Below, one piece after another: positions 1-49,700 of a stretch of DNA of 64,000 nt (positions are counted from its first letter, which is position 1; each line of letters starts with the position of its first letter). The stretch is from assembly GCA_000091205.1 (NCBI GenBank), contig AP006492.2. One strand, 5' to 3'. This DNA comes from Cyanidioschyzon merolae. Lineage: Eukaryota. The position numbers were made by a program, and so were the translations under genes. Under the pieces are notes generated by a model. The model was not told the DNA's origin. It saw only the letters and a list, made by a program, of their open reading frames with translations, and searched no databases.

Positions 1-518
1 CTCTCGAATGCGTTGATGGAAGGAAAACGCCAGTGCATCTATGTACAAACCCGGTAGCATTCTGCAAGGGCGTTTACCGGAGATGGGGTTTCCGGTGCAC
101 CAGTGTCGCGCGTGCTGCCTCCCCGATGTTTGCGATCACGGGCGTGCTGCTGTATGGACCCGGTCGGTACGCAAGCACGATCCACAGCAGCTGGGCGATC
201 AAGCCGCTTGCGGAACAGCGTCAGCACAGCGCGTATCTGCGCTTATTTCAGGGACTGCTCAAGAGTCTGGTCGACCGATGACGGTTTATCTTTTGCTTCC
301 AAACTAGAGCAGATGCAACACAGAATGAAGGCACCTTCCCCTGTAATCGTCAACGGCTCTCACTGAAAACCCATGCAACCGAAACGTCCAATCATGCGGA
401 TTTCGTAAAGTGTCAGCGTCTTGCACGATCTATGCATGATTCTGGGTCCCATGTGATCGACAGACGCTGTTGAGAGCAGGCTTGCGTCGCGTGTCCCCGT
501 TGTAACGGAACGCCGGTG

Positions 519-1193
519 TCACTTGCGCCACTCCGTGGACTCATCCTTCATTGCAATAGAGGGCGGTTTACCGCGACCCAGTTTCATTTTTAACCATTGG
601 ATAAGGCTCATAGCTTGTTCGGGTCGAATCATCTGCGTCGGATAGTCAAAATCTTTCGCAATAACGCGGTAGCCGTACTCCAGGTCATCAGCGGTATACT
701 TTCGCAACGCGGAGTACTTGCGCAGGGCGGCGTGGATCATGCGACGCCCCTGCTCACTGAAAACAGAGCGTGCCACTCCCTTGTTCAAAGTGTCGCCATA
801 GAATTTGCGTCCCCAGCTCGTGCGCATAGCGTTAACCAGCATCTTCGCGCGCCCGTCGCCTCTCATGGTGCCCAGTGGGTACCACAGCCCCGAGACGGGA
901 CTACGCGCGAGAATTGCAAACACCGGTGTACCGTCTTCAGGAACCTCTAGTTCGCTAGGCGGTGCCAGTGGAGCATTAGGTTTACCTTTCTTGGCTTGGA
1001 GGCCAATAACGCCTCGATGCGGCAGTGCGGTCGAGCGATGCACCCCAGCGGCGCTTGCCGGTGCGCTCTGTACGCGTGACCTTGGACAGAAAACACCGTG
1101 GGTATGAGCAGTTGTTAGAGATACCGCTTGTCCATTTCTGTTTAGACTTGGTTTCCAACGTGTACCACTGAAACCAGCGCCTTGGATGAACAT
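519..1193 (-). CDS. Hypothetical ORF; the C-terminal half (about 519-900) looks protein-like with weak GIY-YIG / T5orf172-like spacing (GLWYPLGT...R...E)
   Basis: 224-aa minus-strand ORF in the track. Only the C-terminal roughly 125 aa has non-repetitive, conserved-looking composition (WGRKFYGD..., HAALRKY..., EYGYRVIAKDF...). The domain assignment is a guess from motif spacing. Confidence 0.2.
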   Translation of the reverse strand: MFIQGAGFSGTRWKPSLNRNGQAVSLTTAHTHGVFCPRSRVQSAPASAAGVHRSTALPHRGVIGLQAKKGKPNAPLAPPSELEVPEDGTPVFAILARSPVSGLWYPLGTMRGDGRAKMLVNAMRTSWGRKFYGDTLNKGVARSVFSEQGRRMIHAALRKYSALRKYTADDLEYGYRVIAKDFDYPTQMIRPEQAMSLIQWLKMKLGRGKPPSIAMKDESTEWRK

Positions 1194-2120
1194 CTGTTAC
1201 CAGTTCACCTGTGCGGCACACGAAGAGTGATGGACAATGCCTGCAATGTTCGTTGTACGGAAGGCCATCGATGGGCAGCGAGTCGTGATCGCCGGCTCCG
1301 CTGCGTGCCCGCCGTGAGCACCCCCGCAGCAGCGCTCATGGTGCCGGTGCAGATGTATGCTTGAGTCAGAGCGACTTGGCCGTACCACTTTGGGCATCGG
1401 ATGGAGTAATACTACAGCTGGCATGGAATTAGGGCTAGGTATCATTCTGGGAACCTGAAATATAGGCAGATGGACGTACTGGCTACGGCCACGCGAAGCG
1501 ATATGCTTGGAGATAACTGCAATATGAGCAACGCCCAGTCGCAGCTTGAATGCCCCTAGTCCCAGAATAAGCTGCGTTGCGAACGAGTCGCGCAGGTCTC
1601 GCCGGAGCAACCGCCACTTTAGAGGCACACCGAGCGCAAACCTGGGAGACTCGTCCGGCTCGCGGGACCTGCCTCCTGTACGGTAAACTTTCGACAATAT
1701 GGAAACCTGTTCCCGCTCTAAAATTTTTTTTGTTGAGGGGAAAGAAATTATTTTCTAGTTGCTAGGTAGTGGTTGGTCTCTGTCCTTTATTACGATATGG
1801 CGCACTCGATACGCCCACCTCCATATTCGGCAGGAACGGAACACGTCGCGCATGTCGCCTTTGTGGGGAGACACGATCCTGGGCACTCGTTGACCTACTG
1901 CTCTAACGGGCAAGTTGTACTAACATGAAAGTCGCATCAAAGTATAGTCTTCCATTCCAGTTGTGTTTCAACCCTCAAGTAAGTGTATTCAAGTGATTTT
2001 TTGCAGTTTATAACGAAAGCGTTCACAGCGCGGTTTTCTCAAAAATAACAAAGTAGTGGAAGTGGAATTGGAGGATTCTCGAGGACCGATATCGCCGGCT
2101 GAAGGGAAAAACGAAAAGAA

Positions 2121-4378
2121 TTGCCGAGCAGAGAGGACCAGGAGAAGACAAAGAAGCTGAGACAGGAGGCCAGACGTCAAAGGCTGCACGAGAGACGACA
2201 GTGCGACGAAATGGTGGTGCAAGCTCTTCTTCTACGCCGTACCAAGCATCCCTGTGGGCAAACGTTGCGAGAGGCCATCAGAAACCGTGTCGAGTCGTAC
2301 TCCGTGAGTATTATAAAGGCCTCGTCAGGGCTAATGCATTTGGTGAAGGAGATGTACCATCACATTACGGATATCACAACAGTCGAGGTTCCGGAAGAAT
2401 TTTTCATCGGGACCTTTATTCGCCACCTGATGCCTGGCACAGGGAAAATGTCGACGAAATGCGAGGGAGTGCACGCCCTCCACGAAAAATTTCCCCTTTA
2501 GAGCTCCAATGGTGCTCGATACAGGGATGAAGGAGATATTTACACCTACAGGGCGATGAAGTACTTCACGAATCTGAAGGACCACGTGAAAATGAACCGC
2601 GAACGTTTCATGAAACGCTCCGTATTTGCGCTCTACCCGGGCATCTCTCGCAAGCGGATACGTGCGATTATCCATGGCATCATGAACAATCGCCAGCATG
2701 GACAGGAGATCGAATTCGTTGACGAGAAGACATCACTCTGGTAAACGAATCAGGCTTATGTCATTCGTGCGGTTATACAAGAGCACCGTGCAATCTTGGG
2801 GCTGGCGAACCCAACAGAAAAGGTATTAGATTTGAAAAAAGATAAGGAAAGATGCTATCGCCTCGTCCTACGCTATTTCGTGTTCCTGGACCGAGAACTG
2901 GAACGCAAGGCGGAGATGACGCTGAGTGAGGAAAACAATGATGAATGGCAGAGACGGAAGGCTGTCCTGATGGGTAAGCGCTTCAATGGCGTTCCGTTGT
3001 GCAGCATCAAGTCGCACTATGTGATTATCGACTCCAGAGTCCTCTACGGCGTCATGGAGGAGACCTGTCCGCAGTTCGATGGAAGGAAGACGGAGTTCAC
3101 CGGTGAAAGCCGGGAGACGTACTGGAAGAATATCTTCTATTTCAAACGTCGCAAAGTGAGCAAGCAGAGGGTATTCACGGGCATAATCGAAACCGATGGA
3201 GTGTCCATGTGTGTACACTGTCGGCGGTTGAAGGCGGATCGTCCTATCGTGCCTTCGGCTTCGCCCGTGACGAAGCATGAAGAAAAGAAAGAGGCGGATC
3301 CTGCGACGCAGGAGGTGCATGAGAGTGACTTTGTCGTCGGCGTGGACCCCGGAAACACGATGAATATAGCCGTTGCAGCACCCAAGCGTGCGGAAGATGG
3401 CAGTGACGGTGACTTACGTCAGAAAGACATGCGTCTTTTCAAGCTCTCGAGAGCAAGATACCATCGAGAATCGGGAATCATGAATGCGAGGAAGAAAATC
3501 GAGACGTGGAATGCAGGAATCAAGGATCACCTGGAAGTTATGGGCGAGGTGGCGAGCCGCGGAGCAGACTTTAAAGCTTTTCGGGAGTTCGTGAAAATTC
3601 GTGTTGCCCATTGGGGTGCGCTGTGGAAAGAGTACGCCAAGCCCCGGTGGGCTCGTCTGCGTATGAACCTGTACTGTGGAAAACAGCGTGCATTCGCGAA
3701 TTTTTTCAATCAGTTGAGAGCCTTGAAGGAGGCCGAGAGTCAGAGGCTCGTAGTGGCATACGGAGCAGGGCGCAGGAAGACCCATAAAGGAACTACGCCA
3801 GCTCCAAGGACGAGAGCGTACAAGGAATGTGCACCGCGTTTCGACACGATACCTGTAGATGAGTTCCGAACGTCGTATACACATCATGAACTGGGGGTGT
3901 ACGCTTCAGAGAGTTGGGATGGAAAAGCGCCAGCAGAGCTCCGAGGATATGGCAAAAGTACGGAGCCCTGACGGAAGAGCAAATGGAAAGGAGGGCGAAC
4001 GTTCGTGGACTACTTGCATCAGTGAGTACAACCAGTGATGGCAAGAAACGTATGGAGTTCGTGAATAGAGACTTTCATGCAGCTATCAAAATAAGAAGAC
4101 GTGCGATGATGGAGAAAAGACCTGCAGAGTGGACGCGAGAGAACTTTGTTGGGCAACGTCTCAAGGTGGAACTATATGAGAAAAACTTGAGACCAGTAGA
4201 AGGTGGCCGGTCCAAAAAGACGGGGAAGCGTCTGCACATCAGTTGGAGACGTTTCGTCTGGGGCAAGTTTCTCGCCACAACTGTGCACTGCCGGCGACTG
4301 CTTTCGACTTTTAAAAGGCGTTCGCTAGCGGTGTCTTTCCAGCCGTCGTCCGGTGTACTCGCGAAAGGACCAATGTGA
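2121..4378 (+). pseudogene. Fanzor1-like (TnpB/OMEGA-family RuvC nuclease) ORF, disrupted by in-frame TAG at 2499-2501, in-frame TAA at 2742-2744 and a frameshift near 3900-3975. Either a decayed transposon-borne gene or an unresolved multi-exon gene.
   Basis: Frame 0 is open from 2103 to 3971 apart from two single stop codons, and frame 2 continues from 3914 to 4378. Motifs seen: a K/R-rich N-terminal tract (EKTKKLRQEARRQRLHERRQ); RuvC-I '[17 protein letters not shown]'; the Fanzor1-type block 'VVAYGAGRRKTHKGTTPAPRTRAYKECAPRFDTIPVDEFRTSYTHHELG' with the relocated Glu in 'vdEfRTS'; and RuvC-III 'VNRDFHAAIKIRR' (matches D.NAA.NI). The zinc-finger cysteines after 'RTS' appear lost. Confidence 0.6.
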
Positions 4379-4980
4379 TGCACAGAGGTAGATGCCGGAA
4401 ACAGAAGCGCGCCCTAGGTTTCGTGGATACAAGGCGCGGACCCACGTAGAGATATTCCCGAAAGTTTCCCAAGGGCTACGTTCGAGTCCAAAGTAAATAC
4501 TCTTCGGAACATCAGACGACGAGCTATGCCCTTTGTCATGGACGCAGCGGAGCGGAGGACATTGTCGCCGCCACCGCCACCACCACCAACGCACCCGCAG
4601 GTATCACAGGTCTTCGAAAAGGAAACCATCGAGGCCGTTGAGCCGCATACAAGCCGGATCACGTTTCCATGGATGGTTCGTACATGAAAGCACCTCATCA
4701 TGACCAAGCTCTGGTTAACTGTTGACTCGGCGCGTGCCAGGGCCTGATCAAATGATAGCAAACACGATCCCCGGAACGCTTCGCACCAGACTTTTTGTAC
4801 CCCGCATGATTGATGTATAGCATGCCCGCTTCCCATATCCCATGAAAGGAACCCGCTGTCCCGCTCCACGATGCATCGACAGAGCAGCGTTCTAGCAGAG
4901 CGCGCTCATAGGCGCATGGCGATCAGTACACGCGGGCTTCTGCGCTGGAGTTGTTGCTCGACGACGTACCGCAGCCGTCT

Positions 4981-14418: not shown

Positions 14419-15612
14419 CTACGTTGCGGGCAGCGCAAGGGTGCGCGATGCTGCGAGCCACGGCTCGAATGCAAACCCCAACATATCGAAAAGAGGAGGC
14501 AGCAACGCCAGACTGAAAAAGAAGAAGATGCTGTAAATCGCACCGCTCGCCGCAAAACGTGCTGCGGCACAATAAGACACCCTGCTCTTCGCCTCGTGCC
14601 GGGCGCGCTTCGCGCCCGGCACATCGGGTGCGTGGCGGTCATCCGCTGATGGGCTTCTCTTAGAGCGCCACCTTGAGCCCGGCTCGCTCGTCGAGCCTTT
14701 CGCTATCGACTCCGATTCCGTACATGGAGACGAAAACAGATACCCTTTCGCGTCCTCTTTCTCACTCGGTGGCGGTGTACCAACTTGTGACGCTCCCGTC
14801 CAGCCCAGTTGACCGTTCGAGATAGTCAAGAACGAGGCGAGTTCTCGCAGCACCGACTTGGTGACACAAGCGAAACCGACAATCATTCGCTGACCATTTG
14901 TCGGAGGTTTTCCGTTTGTCTCGCAGCTAGCTTGCGACGCGGCCTCATTCGGGTTGTCTGGCGAGCTCCTCGCTTCCACAGTGCGAGTGCTTTGCGCGCA
15001 CACGAGCGCTTCCAGTTCGCGAACGCGTTCCCTCAGCCGTTGATTCTCGACCGCGAGATCGCTGAGTGCCCGAGATAACAACAGGTAGTCTCCAATGCCC
15101 ATGTCGCGAGAACTCCACGCTGTGTCCTCTAAACAAAATGATGCAGCACGAGGCGACTGTGGCAGCGACTCCGCGGCGACAGTGCACCCACCAAAGTCGG
15201 TGGACGAGTCCGTCTCGAACCGCCCTGAAGTAGGTATGATACCCGAACGTACCTCCCATTCACCATTTTGTTCGTCTTGAGAACAAGATTCTAAGTTAAG
15301 AAAGTTGTCCCAGTTAGATAGGTTTGTTGAGGTCGTGTGTTCCACTGCCATGCAGTCCGTTTCGAGGCGAACGCAAAACACGAATCGGATACGGGATCGC
15401 GTATGCGTGTGCGCCTTCGAGAATCGCGGAGGCGCTTCCAACCGATCGGACACGTGTCCCGCGCGTTGATCCACAGGCATGCGTGCCTGGCGGATGAAAT
15501 CCCTGATTTTGTTGGATAGGGCCCAGACAATGTGCCTGGATTCTAGAGTGCGCGTTGCAACTGGGCACTCGGGAAAGCATCCATCATACTTCGTGATACG
15601 TCCAAGTTCCAA
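14419..15612 (-). CDS. Hypothetical protein with a Cys/His-containing N-terminal segment and a leucine-zipper-like coiled coil (LAVENQRLRERVRELEAL)
   Basis: 397-aa ORF with no confident domain match. The C-terminal part is low complexity. Confidence 0.3.
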   Translation of the reverse strand: MELGRITKYDGCFPECPVATRTLESRHIVWALSNKIRDFIRQARMPVDQRAGHVSDRLEAPPRFSKAHTHTRSRIRFVFCVRLETDCMAVEHTTSTNLSNWDNFLNLESCSQDEQNGEWEVRSGIIPTSGRFETDSSTDFGGCTVAAESLPQSPRAASFCLEDTAWSSRDMGIGDYLLLSRALSDLAVENQRLRERVRELEALVCAQSTRTVEARSSPDNPNEAASQASCETNGKPPTNGQRMIVGFACVTKSVLRELASFLTISNGQLGWTGASQVGTPPPSEKEDAKGYLFSSPCTESESIAKGSTSEPGSRWRSKRSPSADDRHAPDVPGAKRARHEAKSRVSYCAAARFAASGAIYSIFFFFSLALLPPLFDMLGFAFEPWLAASRTLALPAT

Positions 15613-16219
15613 GACCCATTCATTGTTTCGAATAGACTGGTCGTTCCATACGATCCATGATGCTCCGAGCCTGTCGTACGCATCCGCAAGAGCGTGAAGA
15701 GAGCCAGTGCGGACACCGGACGCGGGTAGACCACTTTTTTATCATTCCGCTGAGGGCGGCTGCTCGAGGCGTGGTCCACCTGACGCGGGATCCGGTTTCG
15801 TTGTCAGTGCACGCTCTGGCAGGCTGCATATGGGACCCTATTGAAGCGGCACGGCGCTTTGGAGAAATCTAACTGCTAGGAAGAATTCTGGCCATAGAGT
15901 CTCACATTCGCCATCGGATACGGATTGCGTTGCGGTATAGGAGCGCGGGTCTTGGCTCGGTACCCATCAGCGAGGAGGTAGATGAAACGCTGGGCCGGCA
16001 CGCCCATCCGTATTGCGCAGCCTTCAGCCAAGAGGCTAGAATGTGAGATTGGTCGGCGCTCGCGGGGTTGTGGCTCAGACAGAGGAACACCAGGTGCCAG
16101 AACTGCAATCAATGCGAATGATCGTCCTCGATCGCCTATAGTGACGTTTCGAAGATGTGCTCCCTCAGGGAGCCTGCAGTGATCCTCTAGCCAAAGCGGA
16201 CTCTGTAGAAACGACTTTG

Positions 16220-17830: not shown

Positions 17831-18489
17831 AAGCACGTCCGTTTTCTACAACCAACCGCCTTTCCATACCTCTATACGTATCTAAGGTGCCACACTAGAT
17901 TCAAAATATATCTCATAGACCTCTACACACTGCGATACGTTCAAGAGCTTAGGGTGCTCGTACAGGCGCATGCCTACGCATATATGTACGTATAGGCACT
18001 CTCGTTGCCAGTGACAAGTACGGACCAGTGGACGCGTTTTCTCGAGTTGAGGCCGACGCCTCCACTTTGCCGTCTGTTGTACACAACGTATGCAACGGAA
18101 CTTTGGTCGGGAAAACGTGGATCGCCGCCAGTTCTAGCCTATTAGAGACCTCGTGCCATCAGCACGATCCACGTAGGGTATGGATACCGACTCACAGACA
18201 CTTCGCTGGGTTGCCCGACTCGCCGACTGGTATCAGCTTCAGCTTCTCCTGGTACATCTCGACCTCGAGAGGTTCCCCCACAGAGTTCGCTCGCGTTAGC
18301 TCCGTGGGTCTCATCTTCAGGACTGCACATCTCCTCGTATTGATGGCGGCGTTAAAGTTCACGAACGCCATGCGTTTCTTGCCTCTGCGCGAACCCATCA
18401 ATGCAAGGATTCCTAGAATTCGCGCCCTTCGTACCACTACAGCCTCATCAACGCCCCGCCGTGCGAACACGCTCTCTCGCCTATCCCCC

Positions 18490-18850
18490 TTCTTCTACTT
18501 CGTCATTTGCTATTCTTCGCTCAATGTTCGGCGAGAAGAGGACTGTTTCGTTATTTTCCGGCACCCTTGCCTATCCCCCTTCTTCTTCTACTCCGTCATT
18601 TGCTATTCTTCGCTCAATGTTCGGCGAGAAGAGGATTGTTTCGTTATTTTCCGGCACCCTTGCCTATCTCCCTTCTTCTTCTACTTCGTCATTTGCTATT
18701 CTTCGCTCAATGTTCGGCGAGAAGAGGATTGTTTCGTTATTTTCCGGCACCCTTGCCTATCCCCCTTCTTCTTCTACTTCGTCATTTGCTATTCTTCGCT
18801 CAATGTTCGGCGAGAAGAGGATTGTTTCGTTATTTTCCGGCACCCGACGA
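18490..18850. repeat. Minisatellite, 93-bp unit in about 4 tandem copies
   Basis: The unit starting 'gtcatttgctattcttcgctcaatgttcggcgagaagagga' recurs at 18502, 18595, 18688 and 18781. All three plus-strand frames stay open across it. Confidence 0.9.
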
Positions 18851-26209: not shown

Positions 26210-26457
26210 GATGCGCACAGGTAGGCGAGCAGAGCGCGTCAGAGGCGCAATGAGCGAAGCGATCGCTGAGGCGACGTGTTTGTTCCTCGGCTACGAGCAT
26301 GAAAGCGCTGGCCGTGTGTTGGACGTTCTCGTTCGTTAAAGATGCGGTGATCACGTCCGTCCGTATTCTTGTCGACCGGGTGCGTTGCATGAACACAATG
26401 GTCACCGAGCTGACGCCCGTCCAGACAGCTCCAAGTTGTTCTGTCTCTGCCGGGCAG

Positions 26458-26530
26458 CGGCGGCGGCGGCGGCAGCAGCAGCAGCAGCAGCAGCAGCGGC
26501 AGCAGCAGCAGCAGCAGCAGCAGCGCATCT
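26458..26530. repeat. (CAG/CGG)n trinucleotide repeat
   Basis: cggcggcggcggcagcagcagcag... Confidence 0.9.
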
Positions 26531-26756: not shown

Positions 26757-26980
26757 GGCGGCTGGTCGTAGGTGCTGCTCCAAAGCAGGTATTTCACATC
26801 GTTTCTCGCTAAACAAGTCCATTCGCTCCCACACGACACTTGAAAGCGAGCATCACCCACGGACAGGGGCGGCTGGTCGTAGGCGCTGCTCGAAAGCAGG
26901 TATTTCACATCGTTTCTCGCTAAACAAGTACATTCGCTCCCACTCGACACTTGAAAGCGAGCATCACCCACAGACGGGAA
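26757..26980. repeat. Tandem duplication, 112-bp unit in 2 copies
   Basis: The run 'ggctggtcgtaggtgctgctccaaagcaggtatttcacatcgtttctcgctaaacaagtccattcgctcccacacgacacttgaaagcgagcatcacccac' is repeated with a few substitutions. Confidence 0.85.
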
Positions 26981-28382: not shown

Positions 28383-28952
28383 TCAGTAATAGGTAGCGTG
28401 TGCCTCCAATGCCGCCCGAAAATATCTATACCCGGATACGAGCGACAGAACCGCAGCAGCATGCAGAAAGCTCACACCGAGATACAGTACGGGTGGCGGA
28501 AGTCCGATGCTGGGTTGCGCCAGCAGCAGCAACATAATACTGCCCATCTGGAACACCGTTTTCAGTTTCCCGTGCTGATTCACGGCGACAACATCCCGTA
28601 GACCTCGAGAGGCCATCCACTCGCGTAACGCTGTGATCGCTATCTCTCGCACAAGAATAACGACGGCCGGCAGTGTGACCCAGAACCGCGCGTAACGCTC
28701 GACAAGTAAGATAAGCATCGTTGCGACGCTGAGTTTATCGGCAACAGGATCCAGGAACGCGCCCCATACGCTCGATACGTTAAGGCGACGAGCGATGTAC
28801 CCATCGAGCCAGTCTGTGAGGGAAACCATGCCGAAAAGCGTCGTGCACACAAGCGCAGCCCAGCGCTGAGAGATGTAGAAGAACACGACTATGGGCGGTA
28901 ACAAAATAAGGCGGGCAAGCGTCAGTGCATTGGGCAAGTTCCAAAAGCTCAT
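28383..28952 (-). CDS. CDP-alcohol phosphatidyltransferase (PgsA / phosphatidylglycerophosphate synthase or cardiolipin-synthase type)
   Basis: 'LARLILLPPIVVFFY...SLTDWLDGYIARRLNVSSVWGAFLDPVADKLSVATMLILL' is the D-G-x2-A-R-x8-G-x3-D-x3-D signature. The Met at 28952-28950 gives a 190-aa product. The ORF stays open upstream to 29672 through a repeat region. Confidence 0.75.
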   Translation of the reverse strand: MSFWNLPNALTLARLILLPPIVVFFYISQRWAALVCTTLFGMVSLTDWLDGYIARRLNVSSVWGAFLDPVADKLSVATMLILLVERYARFWVTLPAVVILVREIAITALREWMASRGLRDVVAVNQHGKLKTVFQMGSIMLLLLAQPSIGLPPPVLYLGVSFLHAAAVLSLVSGYRYFRAALEAHATYY

Positions 28953-29460
28953 ACTTTGGACAGGTACAGGTTTCGCCTCGTGAGCGTCTGGACCCAAATC
29001 CAAACGATAGCGCTTCTCGGATTCTAGTGGCTTTTTCCGTCGGATCTGTGAGGGCACATCCTCTATGCAGCCGCGAAGGAGCGTCGGTCGTTTAGCGTGG
29101 ACGCACAAACCGCACCTCCGGAGTGAAGCAAACGCACCGTGCCTCTGTGGGGCGCGCTCCGGCGCCAACCTACCGACAGGTGCCACAAATGCCACCAGTT
29201 GCGACAAGTGGGCACCGTACAGGATGCTGCACGGCGTACACCAGAAACCCATGATGCCTATTGATGACTGGAATTCGTAACTGATTTCATGAGTAAAGCC
29301 ACACCCGCGGCACAGCACAGCAGAGCACAGTGCCGCCTTGCAGGGCAATCGCGAACGACGCTCTTCCCACGGGATGCAGTGATCCGGTAGATGCGCCTGC
29401 CGCACTGCGGCTGGACATCGACGGCGTCGGAGGCGGCATTCCTGCAGCAGTTCCTTATCC

Positions 29461-29680
29461 TGTACAAACCTGCATGAAATAGACTCCTGGGATTCGATGC
29501 GCTCCTCAATATTCAGTACAAACCTGCATGAAATAGACTCCTGGGATTCGATGCGCTCCTCAATATTCTGTACAATCCTGCATGAAATAGACTCCTGGGA
29601 TTCGATGCGCTCCTCAATATTCTGTACAATCCTGCATGAAATAGACTCCTGGGATTCGATGCTCTGACGCATGACGCAAT
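29461..29680. repeat. Minisatellite, 54-bp unit in 4 copies (encodes the 18-aa unit IESQESISCR[I/F]VQNIEER on the minus strand)
   Basis: 'cctgcatgaaatagactcctgggattcgatgcgctcctcaatattc' recurs at 29469, 29523, 29577 and 29631. Confidence 0.9.
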
Positions 29681-43879: not shown

Positions 43880-43881
43880 AC

Positions 43882-43934
<53 letters not shown>
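43880..43934. repeat. (CTGT)n microsatellite, about 13 units
   Basis: ctgtctgtctgtctgt... Confidence 0.95.
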
Positions 43935-44067
43935 GCATGCATACGGACGCTGATCACCACGAAACCGCTATCCCTATCCAGCAACAAATATTGGGACAAC
44001 ATCCACTCCGCGCTCGCTTACAATGCAGTGCCGCAACGATAAAACCGGGGAAAACGGGTGTGCACGC

Positions 44068-46722: not shown

Positions 46723-49700
46723 GAATTGCATTGAACCTTCGGCATGTGCTCATGAACAAGTCCTCAAACGCTGACATCGAGCGCCTTTTCTCTTCAATCC
46801 AGCGGCGCAAATTGATGCACGACGACTTTGCTTCAAAGAGAAAGATCAATACTTGAAGAAAGCTAGCGTCGAAGATGCCGCGTGCAAAGAACGGCGATAC
46901 ATGGAGTCACACACGTGTGGATTCTATGATGATATTCGTTATTTTACGAGCCCTTGTTCGAAGTTGCTGCGAACCACCTTGATTCCCACGAAATGACGAA
47001 TTTCAGCGGGAAAGCGCGGATGGAGCAAATCGGGAACAACCTGCAGCTGTCCTACAACTGCGTATGAATCCCGAAGCCTCCATTGCTGCTCTTTGAATAT
47101 CCATACTTTCGGTTTGAAACACAAATTCTGTAAAGGTTCGAAACCTGGGAACAGAACTACGAGTTCAACGTTCCGTTTTGATCTGCTATCGTGTAGGGGT
47201 GAACACCAGTGCCCCGGAGCGTCGTCCTGCCAATCATCGGGGGCAGTTGCTGCTGATCAGCGGCCAATCTTTATCCTTCCACTGGCACGATCACGACATA
47301 CACCATGAGGTTTAGGACCTGGAGGCCGACGGCTTTATTCCAAATGAGCCCATTCGTTGGCACTTGATCTATGATGTCTTGCACATCCAAGGCCCGTGAC
47401 TGATCTCCGATGCGTTGATTTCAATGGCCTCTGCAACCGGCAAGTATTAGCCAAGGTGGCTCGCTGTACTCGGCGCGATGAAGCCTAGAACGTCTGCACT
47501 AGCATGCCATTTTGTCTTCCCTTGTGTTATCTGCAGGGATTCAACAAATGGAATGTCTCCTGGATTGTGGAGAATGGTCACGGGAAGGCTTTATTCCTCC
47601 GGAATTTTTCGACCGAAACCTTCATGCACCAACACAACTGATACTCGGGACATACGACGCAATACGGCCTAATTGCAGGATCAGAGACTCGCAAAACATT
47701 TATGCCAGAATACCTGGGCGTATCGGCATGCCACCTCGGTACCCCGAACATCCACAACGCCGGTACCAGAACGGATGAAACCTACATCAGGAAACAACAC
47801 GGTACGATGGTCCATATCCAGCGCATCATGAAGCAAACTCTACGACCTTTATAACCTCACCCGAATGGTACGGAAAAGTAAATACTGATATAAAGAATTC
47901 TTGAGATATGGACGAAGGCAAATGACGAGCTGACGCGGAACCATACGAGATGGTATCGAGATCGAAGGAGAAGTCGTAACGAGCGCGAGAGACGCTTAAG
48001 ATCGACCAAGCGCATGGTGTTGTGGTCTCGTTCTCGGACACACGTGGCTAACACTCCAAGGAGCGCTGCAACGTGATACCGGCCTGTTTTGGATGACGTG
48101 CTTCTGCGTTTCTCTTGACAGAAATCTTGAGAGCACAGCACAATTCCTCCATAGATTCGAGAGCAGTGGTCGCTTTCGACGTCCTTTAAGTATGACCCGC
48201 ATTCTTCAAGTCTAATTATTTCCCAGTTAACACATGTGTACTGCAGTCTGTCGCATCGTTCGTGAGCTACGTCTGGTCTCTTTGAGCAAGTACGAAGCAT
48301 CCAAAGTCACTTGCGAAAAGCGTTGACGGGACTCGTTCATCGTTCCTCAGCCACAGGGATGAAATGAGAAGAAGCTGATCGGATGATGGAGACTGACGGC
48401 ATATCAATCTGCATGCACTATGTGCAACATAAACCCGGGTCGTGGACCGAGACTCCTTTTCAAAGTTTCAAGACAGACGAAGACGAAGACGCCGCGCTGA
48501 GCGTGTGGATCGCCCGATGAAGCACACGGCAGCCGTCGCAGTACGTTTCAATCCACAGGACAGATCCAACGATCTGAACGAAAAGCAGATGAAGCTGCAT
48601 ACGTTCTTCAGGGCTCCGTGCGAGCGCGAGTCGAGCACCTTGATCGCCAGCGCGCATGCGAACGACTGAAACAGCGGCATCGCGACCAATCTCGACGCTC
48701 TGAATACCGCATCGAGCAGCTAATCACGCTTTGATCGCTTCACGCTGACACTTCGTGTACGTCCAAATGGCTCATGTGGACGTCCTTCGGCAGGCCGACA
48801 CGGAACCGCGTCCGAGTCGCCGACGTTTTCGGCTTTATGGAGACCGGCAACGGACTTTCGCCAACCCGGTCCATGAGTTGGAAAAAGCAAATCACCGAAA
48901 AGCCGTATGCACTGGTGGTAGCCTACGGCAATGCGCGTTCTGTGACGCCTGAAGACAGCGCTCGTTTTCGCTCGACGAGCGCGTGCAACCAGTGCAGACA
49001 TTGATGCCGCACGATTCCCATCAACGAATTCCGGGCTTCGACGTACGCACACCATGAGCACGGGTGCACGCTAGATCTGCCTGAGACACAGAGCATGGAA
49101 CAGAGCCGAATACAATGGATGCTGTATTGTGAACTGAACAAGCGTCAAATGGCGCAGTACCTGGAAAAGGAGACGCATCCTACGATGTGATTCCGCGAAG
49201 AGATGATGCGCGCAACCACGAGATGCACCGAAAGCTGAACGCCTCAATCAAGATCCGGAAGCATCTCGTGGTTTCGGAGGATTCAGCGGTATTCTGTGGA
49301 GCGACACTTGTGAGCGCATCGTTTTGTATACAGTATATGCATTGTGTTGGCACGTCGAAGACTTGCAGGGAGAAAAATCAGCCGTCATCCGGGCTGGCAT
49401 TGGACGCTTGCCTGGAGCAGCGCGCATCTATAATGGGGTCCAGCAAGCAGGCAAGCATGAATCGCCATATATACATTGGGAATGGTCTCCCTGCGTCATT
49501 GGTGAACGATAAGACTTCTCCACTACTCCATTCTACTGAATATACCAAACACACACTGAAAGACATTCATGAAGCAGGCGATCTAGTGCCTCGTAGCGCT
49601 GTCCTCGTGGCCGTGGCGCGTGTTGTGGCGCCTGGAGACCTGCCAACGAGCAGCGATCGTGCATCCCATACCAGTACGTAATACGCATTCAGTTCGTTAC

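Follow-up and report, generated by a model that had tools for sequence, protein, structure and literature searches.

The DNA analysed here is a stretch of 64,000 nucleotides of contig AP006492.2 (NCBI GenBank assembly GCA_000091205.1), referred to below as the window. Its host is Cyanidioschyzon merolae, as the products of seven of its eight long open reading frames (ORFs) are identical to 10D proteins (BAM80257-BAM80269). Near its start lies a copy of CMe-1A, a transposable element that Bao and Jurka described in C. merolae in 2013 (Mobile DNA 4:12, PMC3627910) as a family of ~150 copies with ~80% identity to the 3,169-bp consensus, without terminal inverted repeats (TIRs) and with undetermined target-site duplications (TSDs). 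Their gene model (supplementary file 1 of PMC3627910) consists of one exon encoding a 734-aa Fanzor1 protein, and some of the 10D copies of CMe-1 are intact according to the same authors. Using the consensus sequence of their supplementary file 2, local alignment places consensus positions 152-3169 on window positions 1299-4320 with 83.8% identity over 3,009 aligned bases, which takes in 3,018 of the 3,169 bp of the consensus (95% of its length). We conclude with high confidence that window 1299-4320 is one of the ~150 copies and a dead one, that is, a Fanzor1 pseudogene whose ORF has been disabled by seven lesions (Table 1). The object as such is already known: it is an ordinary dead copy of a transposon family described in 2013. 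It shares with the family the genome in which it resides, the order of its parts (a ~900-bp 5' non-coding part followed by the 734-codon single-exon Fanzor1), the lack of TIRs (none joining the two ends was found in 1100-4400) and a divergence typical of CMe-1A copies (~80% to the consensus), and differs in being non-coding.

Table 1. The CMe-1A copy of the window, its Fanzor1 pseudogene and the positions of motifs and lesions; L081 and L082 are metagenome contigs that carry the orthologous locus
Feature	Position	Strand	Basis and remarks
CMe-1A copy, confidently aligned part	1299..4320	+	alignment to published consensus 152-3169
5' non-coding part of the CMe-1A copy	1299..2055	+	aligned to consensus 152-905
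Fanzor1 pseudogene	2056..4261	+	734-codon CMe-1 ORF plus stop position, codon-by-codon map
Lesion 1, start ATG>GTG	2056..2058	+	consensus ORF map; ATG in at least 21 other copies; GTG in L082
Lesion 2, 1-nt deletion in A run, codon 17	2105..2106	+	consensus ORF alignment; shifts the frame
Lesion 3, Tyr149 TAC>TAG	2499..2501	+	consensus map and copy pile-up
Lesion 4, Ser230 AGC>TAA	2742..2744	+	consensus map and copy pile-up
RuvC-I motif GVDPGNT	3339..3359	+	catalytic Asp kept; Asp invariant in profile A5
RuvC-II motif VDEFRTS	3855..3875	+	Glu kept; Glu invariant in profile A5
Lesion 5, extra G in G run 3893-3897	3893	+	frame 0 to +1; base missing in 66 of 84 copies; common to L081 and L082
Lesion 6, extra A in A run 3954-3957	3954	+	frame +1 to +2; not in L081 or L082, 10D-specific
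RuvC-III motif NRDFHAAIKI	4064..4093	+	+2 frame; Asp kept; consensus NRDFNAAINI
Lesion 7, stop TAG>TGG	4259..4261	+	other copies TAG (37) or TAA (11); orthologue TGG
3'-terminal hairpin, candidate right-end signal or omega-RNA stem	4285..4334	+	RNA fold

The most conspicuous property of the locus is a long reading frame. The frame at positions divisible by three is open from 2103 to 3968 (622 codons) save for the TAG at 2499 and the TAA at 2742, while 31 and 17 stops interrupt the other two forward frames within this interval and 2,000 shuffles of the region gave 30.9 stops on average and 13 at the minimum. The first-pass annotation had reported this frame as open for about 620 codons, nearly intact and broken only by the two stops and one frameshift. 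Its length and both stops were read correctly, yet the damage was understated, as there are two insertions in place of the single frameshift and seven disabling changes altogether: neither the start nor the stop codon is left, two codons have become nonsense codons by substitution, and three homopolymer runs have each gained or lost 1 nt. These were called from a codon-by-codon map, in which all 734 consensus codons find their place in the window without large indels and the translation is 77% identical in amino acids once the frame is repaired, and were checked against a pile-up of more than 80 other copies. In metagenome contigs, a scan confirmed at least 169 related loci and listed 80 of them.

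At both stops most copies carry sense codons, and there is no consensus of the same stops. The site 2499-2501 reads TAC in 30 and TTC in 20 of 64 covering copies (50/64) and TAG in five, two of which represent the orthologous locus; the site 2742-2744 is AGC in 51 of 70 copies, and TAA occurs nowhere but in L081 and L082. The repaired translation used as query retrieved 30 protein clusters (P0001-P0030), all from Joint Genome Institute metagenomes and 57-78% identical, which align uninterrupted across both stop positions and the frame switch. The 20 codons between the insertions at 3893 and 3954 (CTLQRVGMEKRQQSSEDMAK) are read in the third frame, where they agree with the homologues, and the RuvC motifs of the copy are split between two reading frames, the RuvC-III motif being found in the +2 frame as first noticed. 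Furthermore, the TGA at 2100 that bounds the open frame lies outside the true frame, and after the loss of the stop codon the frame runs on to a TGA at 4376-4378, beyond the element. Owing to the seven lesions, no protein can be made from this copy.

It had been proposed as an alternative that the stops and the frame switch lie within short unannotated introns, so that the gene would be active once spliced. Splice-like contexts do occur, if superficially: the TAG closes the pyrimidine-rich stretch CCCCTTTAG, the TAA lies within G/GTAAAC, and a GTGAGT follows further downstream. This hexamer had been placed at about 4019-4024 near the frame switch; it is real, but is found at 4022-4027, 70-130 nt downstream of the true shifts, where it belongs to the consensus and codes for Val-Ser of the conserved LALVSTT. 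Throughout 2106-3893 the window contains no extra sequence compared with the intron-less consensus, the stops occupy positions that are Tyr/Phe and Ser codons in most copies, the residues flanking each stop align codon-for-codon with the homologues, and the excision of any GT...AG interval would cost conserved residues. The frame changes, in turn, are single-base homopolymer insertions, and the published CMe-1A model is single-exon (PMC3627910). As no sequence has been inserted between 2106 and 3893, the flanks are conserved, the gene model has one exon and the GTGAGT is coding, the intron proposal is refuted, and we grant it practically no chance of being right. The uninterrupted host ORFs of the window agree with C. 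merolae genes being nearly all intron-less.

Stop readthrough, codon reassignment or programmed frameshifting, by which a full-length protein would still be made, has nothing specific in its favour beyond the openness of the frame, which far exceeds chance and is accounted for by recent descent from a selected ORF. Reassignment had been judged unlikely at the outset from host genes that end in TAG, TAA and TGA. Indeed, seven neighbouring genes with products identical to annotated C. merolae proteins use all three codons as stops, which excludes it. As to the other recoding events, the start loss and the three frameshifts would each need one of their own, and the differences from the orthologous copy show no bias for codon position. 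Any such rescue of the protein is therefore extremely improbable.

The orthologous copy is represented by two metagenome contigs from different datasets, L082 and L081, with identities to the window of 99.2% and 98.8%. Since the match of L082 runs over 10.1 kb and includes the flanking host genes, both contigs represent the same locus in a related strain. They have six of the seven lesions in common with the window, the exception being the extra A at 3954. This bears directly on the idea that the gene is intact and its lesions are sequencing or assembly errors of the reference, for which it could be said that all three indels sit in homopolymer runs, a typical error context, and that the orthologous contigs do not contain the A in question. 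Yet both nonsense codons, the GTG start and the extra G at 3893 are among the lesions that recur in the two datasets, the substitutions are not homopolymer errors, and the ORF would be dead even without the insertion at 3954, so that we regard errors of the reference as a highly improbable explanation.

Comparison with L082 also reveals how the copy has changed since the two strains split. The ORF differs by 15.9 substitutions per kb, against 5.8 in the adjacent phenylalanyl-tRNA synthetase (PheRS) gene and 10.9 in intergenic DNA; it has changed about three times as fast as the PheRS gene. The 35 differences within the ORF are distributed 13:9:13 over codon positions 1, 2 and 3. The ORF has been drifting neutrally since the strain split. 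As a separate observation, 14 of the 40 substitutions in the element crowd into 113 nt (3036-3148), which points to conversion by another copy of the element or to a chimera in the metagenome assembly.

The earlier history of the copy was different. The ratio of non-synonymous to synonymous substitution rates (dN/dS) is 0.40 between window and consensus (synonymous divergence dS 0.29), 0.42 against the sister copy L083 and 0.46 against the subfamily ancestor inferred from these three sequences. This comparison between copies, which had been suggested as a check, indicates that the lineage was selected during most of its past. When neutral decay of the consensus ORF was simulated, about 12 stops arose at 14% divergence, with a probability of zero for two or fewer, and about three at 3% divergence. 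Because of the low dN/dS values and the presence of only two nonsense codons, most of the 16% by which the copy has diverged from the family consensus was gained under selection, and the neutral phase was short, by our estimate roughly 3-6%. We thus conclude that the lineage of the copy was under purifying selection for most of its existence, and that the copy then lost its function and now drifts neutrally, with seven ORF-disabling lesions accumulated. As six of the lesions are common to a strain that is ~1% diverged, inactivation is older than the split from this strain. The first reading as a young, decaying transposon copy thus holds for the decay, and for the youth in relative terms only, given 16% divergence and inactivation before the strain split.

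The assignment to Fanzor1 was made by sequence profiles. Profile A5 combines CMe-1 members with more distant full-length relatives taken from representative-library matches, which had been retrieved with a CMe-1-only profile at E<=1e-46. Compared with the PDB, it matches the Fanzor1 structures of Parasitella parasitica (PpFz1, 9cf0, E 5.8e-19), Spizellomyces punctatus (SpuFz1, 8gkh, E 2.3e-11) and Guillardia theta (GtFz1, 9cer, E 4e-6). A narrow family profile of 31 sequences found no match in the PDB, and Pfam gave nothing significant for the four ORF pieces or for the homologues; the best Pfam result was a sub-threshold PF07282 (Cas12f1-like TNB domain) in one distant relative, and the precomputed label of the homologues is DUF8286 only, a weak one. 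The split RuvC motif D...[TS][TS]...RD of Bao and Jurka is present with its Asp, Glu and Asp, in columns that are invariant or nearly so in A5. Between RuvC-II and RuvC-III, where Fanzor1 proteins have a C4 zinc finger, the consensus shows only HHELGC...EKC, and in the window its second Cys has been lost (EKR). Just upstream of RuvC-I, a unit of ~69 nt (23 aa) is single in the window, within 3266-3345, and at the equivalent place in the consensus; other copies have up to about five of these units in tandem (e.g., L001:11226-11370, P0008, P0021).

Compared with the solved Fanzor1 proteins PpFz1, SpuFz1 and GtFz1, CMe-1 shows profile-level homology over the FTGxIETDG region, RuvC-I, RuvC-II and RuvC-III, conserved catalytic Asp-Glu-Asp positions and an N-terminus rich in Lys and Arg. 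The sequence similarity is distant, however, and the Cys-rich zinc-finger segment is cut down to HH...C...C in CMe-1; moreover, the solved proteins are enzymatically active and their omega RNAs have been mapped, whereas the window copy is a pseudogene. A second parallel is provided by the IS1341-type, tnpB-only derivatives of IS200/IS605, in which the gene for a TnpB-family nuclease likewise stands alone, without TIRs or an evident TSD and with a structured right end by the 3' end of the gene; CMe-1A differs from them in its eukaryotic host and in the size of its protein, which is much larger (734 aa). We know of no TnpA-type partner transposase in C. merolae.

Nothing speaks against the pseudogene as such, although parts of the account given so far have weak points. 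Lesion 2 is the least certain of the seven, since the length of the A run differs among copies and leaves the ancestral state unsure, and the extra A at 3954, seen in the 10D sequence alone, could in principle be a sequencing error. AlphaFold2 prediction of P0001 from the 30-sequence alignment was uninformative (mean predicted local distance difference test score 32, predicted template modelling score 0.18), so that support for a TnpB/Cas12-like fold (WED, REC, RuvC) comes from the sequence profiles and the literature. A full-length open frame is present in none of 82 metagenome loci; the longest, 819 codons in L001, has a stop that comes too early and a frame problem at its N-terminus. Recent activity of the family is hence argued from dN/dS and from the intact 10D copies of Bao and Jurka. 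Altogether, we consider the case settled as a routine pseudogene, with neither a new system nor recoding or cryptic introns behind it. Its value is modest: it documents well a Fanzor1 lineage that looks almost intact, whose divergence arose mostly under selection and the last few percent of it neutrally.

Downstream of the ORF, the copy ends in a hairpin. The last ~110 nt, which it closes, are the best-conserved non-coding part of CMe-1A, and the alignments of more than 80 related copies to the window end at about 4300-4340. In the window, the sense strand folds with -23 kcal/mol (z-score -3.4) and the antisense strand with -14.7 kcal/mol (z-score -1.6). The hairpin is long, imperfect and rich in G·U pairs (212 of 1,078 pairs in 51 non-redundant copies), and the sense strand folds better in 45 of these 51 copies, by a mean of 5.8 kcal/mol. 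Examples from elsewhere in the family are L066:1672-1725, L013:8269-8322, L054:8133-8196 and L042:1633-1692. With a fixed register, 76% of the positions are paired in 18 copies, compared with 37-48% in slid controls, while covariation in the same 18 copies is not above that of shuffled controls. RNAalifold found no consensus structure in a MAFFT alignment of 41 right ends, as two variants of the hairpin sit in different registers, and Rfam had no match, either at gathering thresholds across the window or at E<=1 within 1000-4600. An affiliation of the hairpin with Replitrons or Helitrons was considered and rejected: the element has no Rep or helicase gene, its only ORF being Fanzor1, and the flanks differ by locus. 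The paper on Replitrons reports no such proteins in red algae.

In the window the hairpin ends at 4334, 14 nt past the end of the published consensus (4320). With the 22 nt that follow the consensus end included, the fold reaches -22.7 kcal/mol, compared with -10.6 kcal/mol without them and -16.9 kcal/mol with the same length of more distal flank, and the copy's own tail outperforms the distal flank in 40 of 42 copies. When own tails are compared with swapped ones, the gain in pairing is marginal (-1.07 kcal/mol, p 0.05). Judging from the folding gain that this tail brings, CMe-1A extends ~15 nt past its published consensus at the right end.

The hairpin matters for how the element may have worked. 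The Fanzor proteins, which are the TnpB-like nucleases of eukaryotes, cut with a RuvC domain under the guidance of an omega RNA that is transcribed from the right-end region of the transposon and often overlaps the stop codon, and for the Fanzor of S. punctatus stand-alone omega-RNA "ghost" loci are known (PMC10432273). By analogy with the solved relatives, the ancestor of the copy would have acted as an RNA-guided nuclease whose guide RNA was transcribed from the 3' end of CMe-1A. It is conceivable, though unlikely, that only the coding part is dead and that the locus has been kept as a guide-RNA-only unit of the "ghost" type, serving an intact CMe-1 Fanzor1 in trans. The preserved hairpin of the window copy (z-score -3.4), the better fold of the sense strand in 45 of the 51 copies, the S. 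punctatus precedent (PMC10432273) and four loci that have only the last ~110 nt of CMe-1A are consistent with this. Against it stand the covariation, which does not exceed the shuffled controls, and the fact that the hairpin may simply be inherited or act as a transposition signal at the level of DNA; the single substitution between window and orthologue 3' of the ORF is too few to test constraint.

The four loci are L050:1150-1342, L041:337-529, L005:839-1031 and L011:286-478, where CMe-1A is represented from GGAAGCGTCTGCACGTCAGTTGGAGAC to the terminal hairpin. Upstream of these ends, they have a sequence in common that is unrelated to CMe-1A. The arrangement looks like a second non-autonomous or "ghost"-like family based on the 3' end and forming a counterpart to the non-autonomous TE-N2_CMe, which has the same 5' 635 bp as CMe-1A (PMC3627910). 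Solo 5' segments of CMe-1A are likewise present at other loci, and full-length elements there measure 3.1-3.4 kb with Fanzor1 as their sole gene. No transposase gene was found inside the CMe-1A element or in the examined flanks, and none has been reported for the family, so that spread by a Fanzor-dependent route may apply. A broader scheme would take the ORF-dead copies and the ~110-nt relatives as guide loci and the hairpin as the stem of the omega RNA, with the family spreading through Fanzor and without a classical transposase; we consider this unlikely. Returning to the window copy as a dead Fanzor1 element, its longer right-end hairpin, the sense bias and the 3'-only relatives may help to define the omega RNA of CMe-1A and the mechanism of its mobilisation.

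The left end is less sharply defined. The counterpart of the first ~150 bp of the consensus is scarcely recognisable in the window copy; to the left of 1299, a faint likeness to this part reaches ~1135 and fades gradually, and the whole copy probably extends over ~1135-4334. Most full-length copies have a T-rich run, TTTTTTCGA, ahead of base 1 of the published consensus, and this run in turn often follows (GC)TGA (e.g., L068:~5290, L076:~15 and L062:~5005, and ~1135 in the window). These features suggest that the true left end or a target motif may lie 10-15 nt beyond the published start.

Further traces of related elements are scattered over the window. A second CMe-1A fragment at 18216-18446 on the minus strand corresponds to consensus 2833-3019, in the RuvC-III region, with 74% nucleotide identity, and is directly adjoined by a tandem repeat (93 bp x 3.8, 18489-18845). 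On the plus strand, 15537-15806 is 68% identical to consensus 27-293, the 5' part common to CMe-1A and TE-N2_CMe. The other tandem repeats of the window are unrelated to the CMe-1A copy: a GCA microsatellite (26454-26524), a 111-bp x 2 repeat (26757-26975), a 54-bp x 3.8 repeat (29456-29662, within the ORF 28383-29672) and a CTGT microsatellite (43881-43935). Finally, 48383-49208 on the plus strand contains a heavily degraded relic of the RuvC half, spread over three frames and 24-39% identical in amino acids to CMe-1 and other Fanzor1-like proteins, which may be what is left of an older Fanzor1 lineage of C. merolae, or of a second one, unlisted in the 2013 paper.

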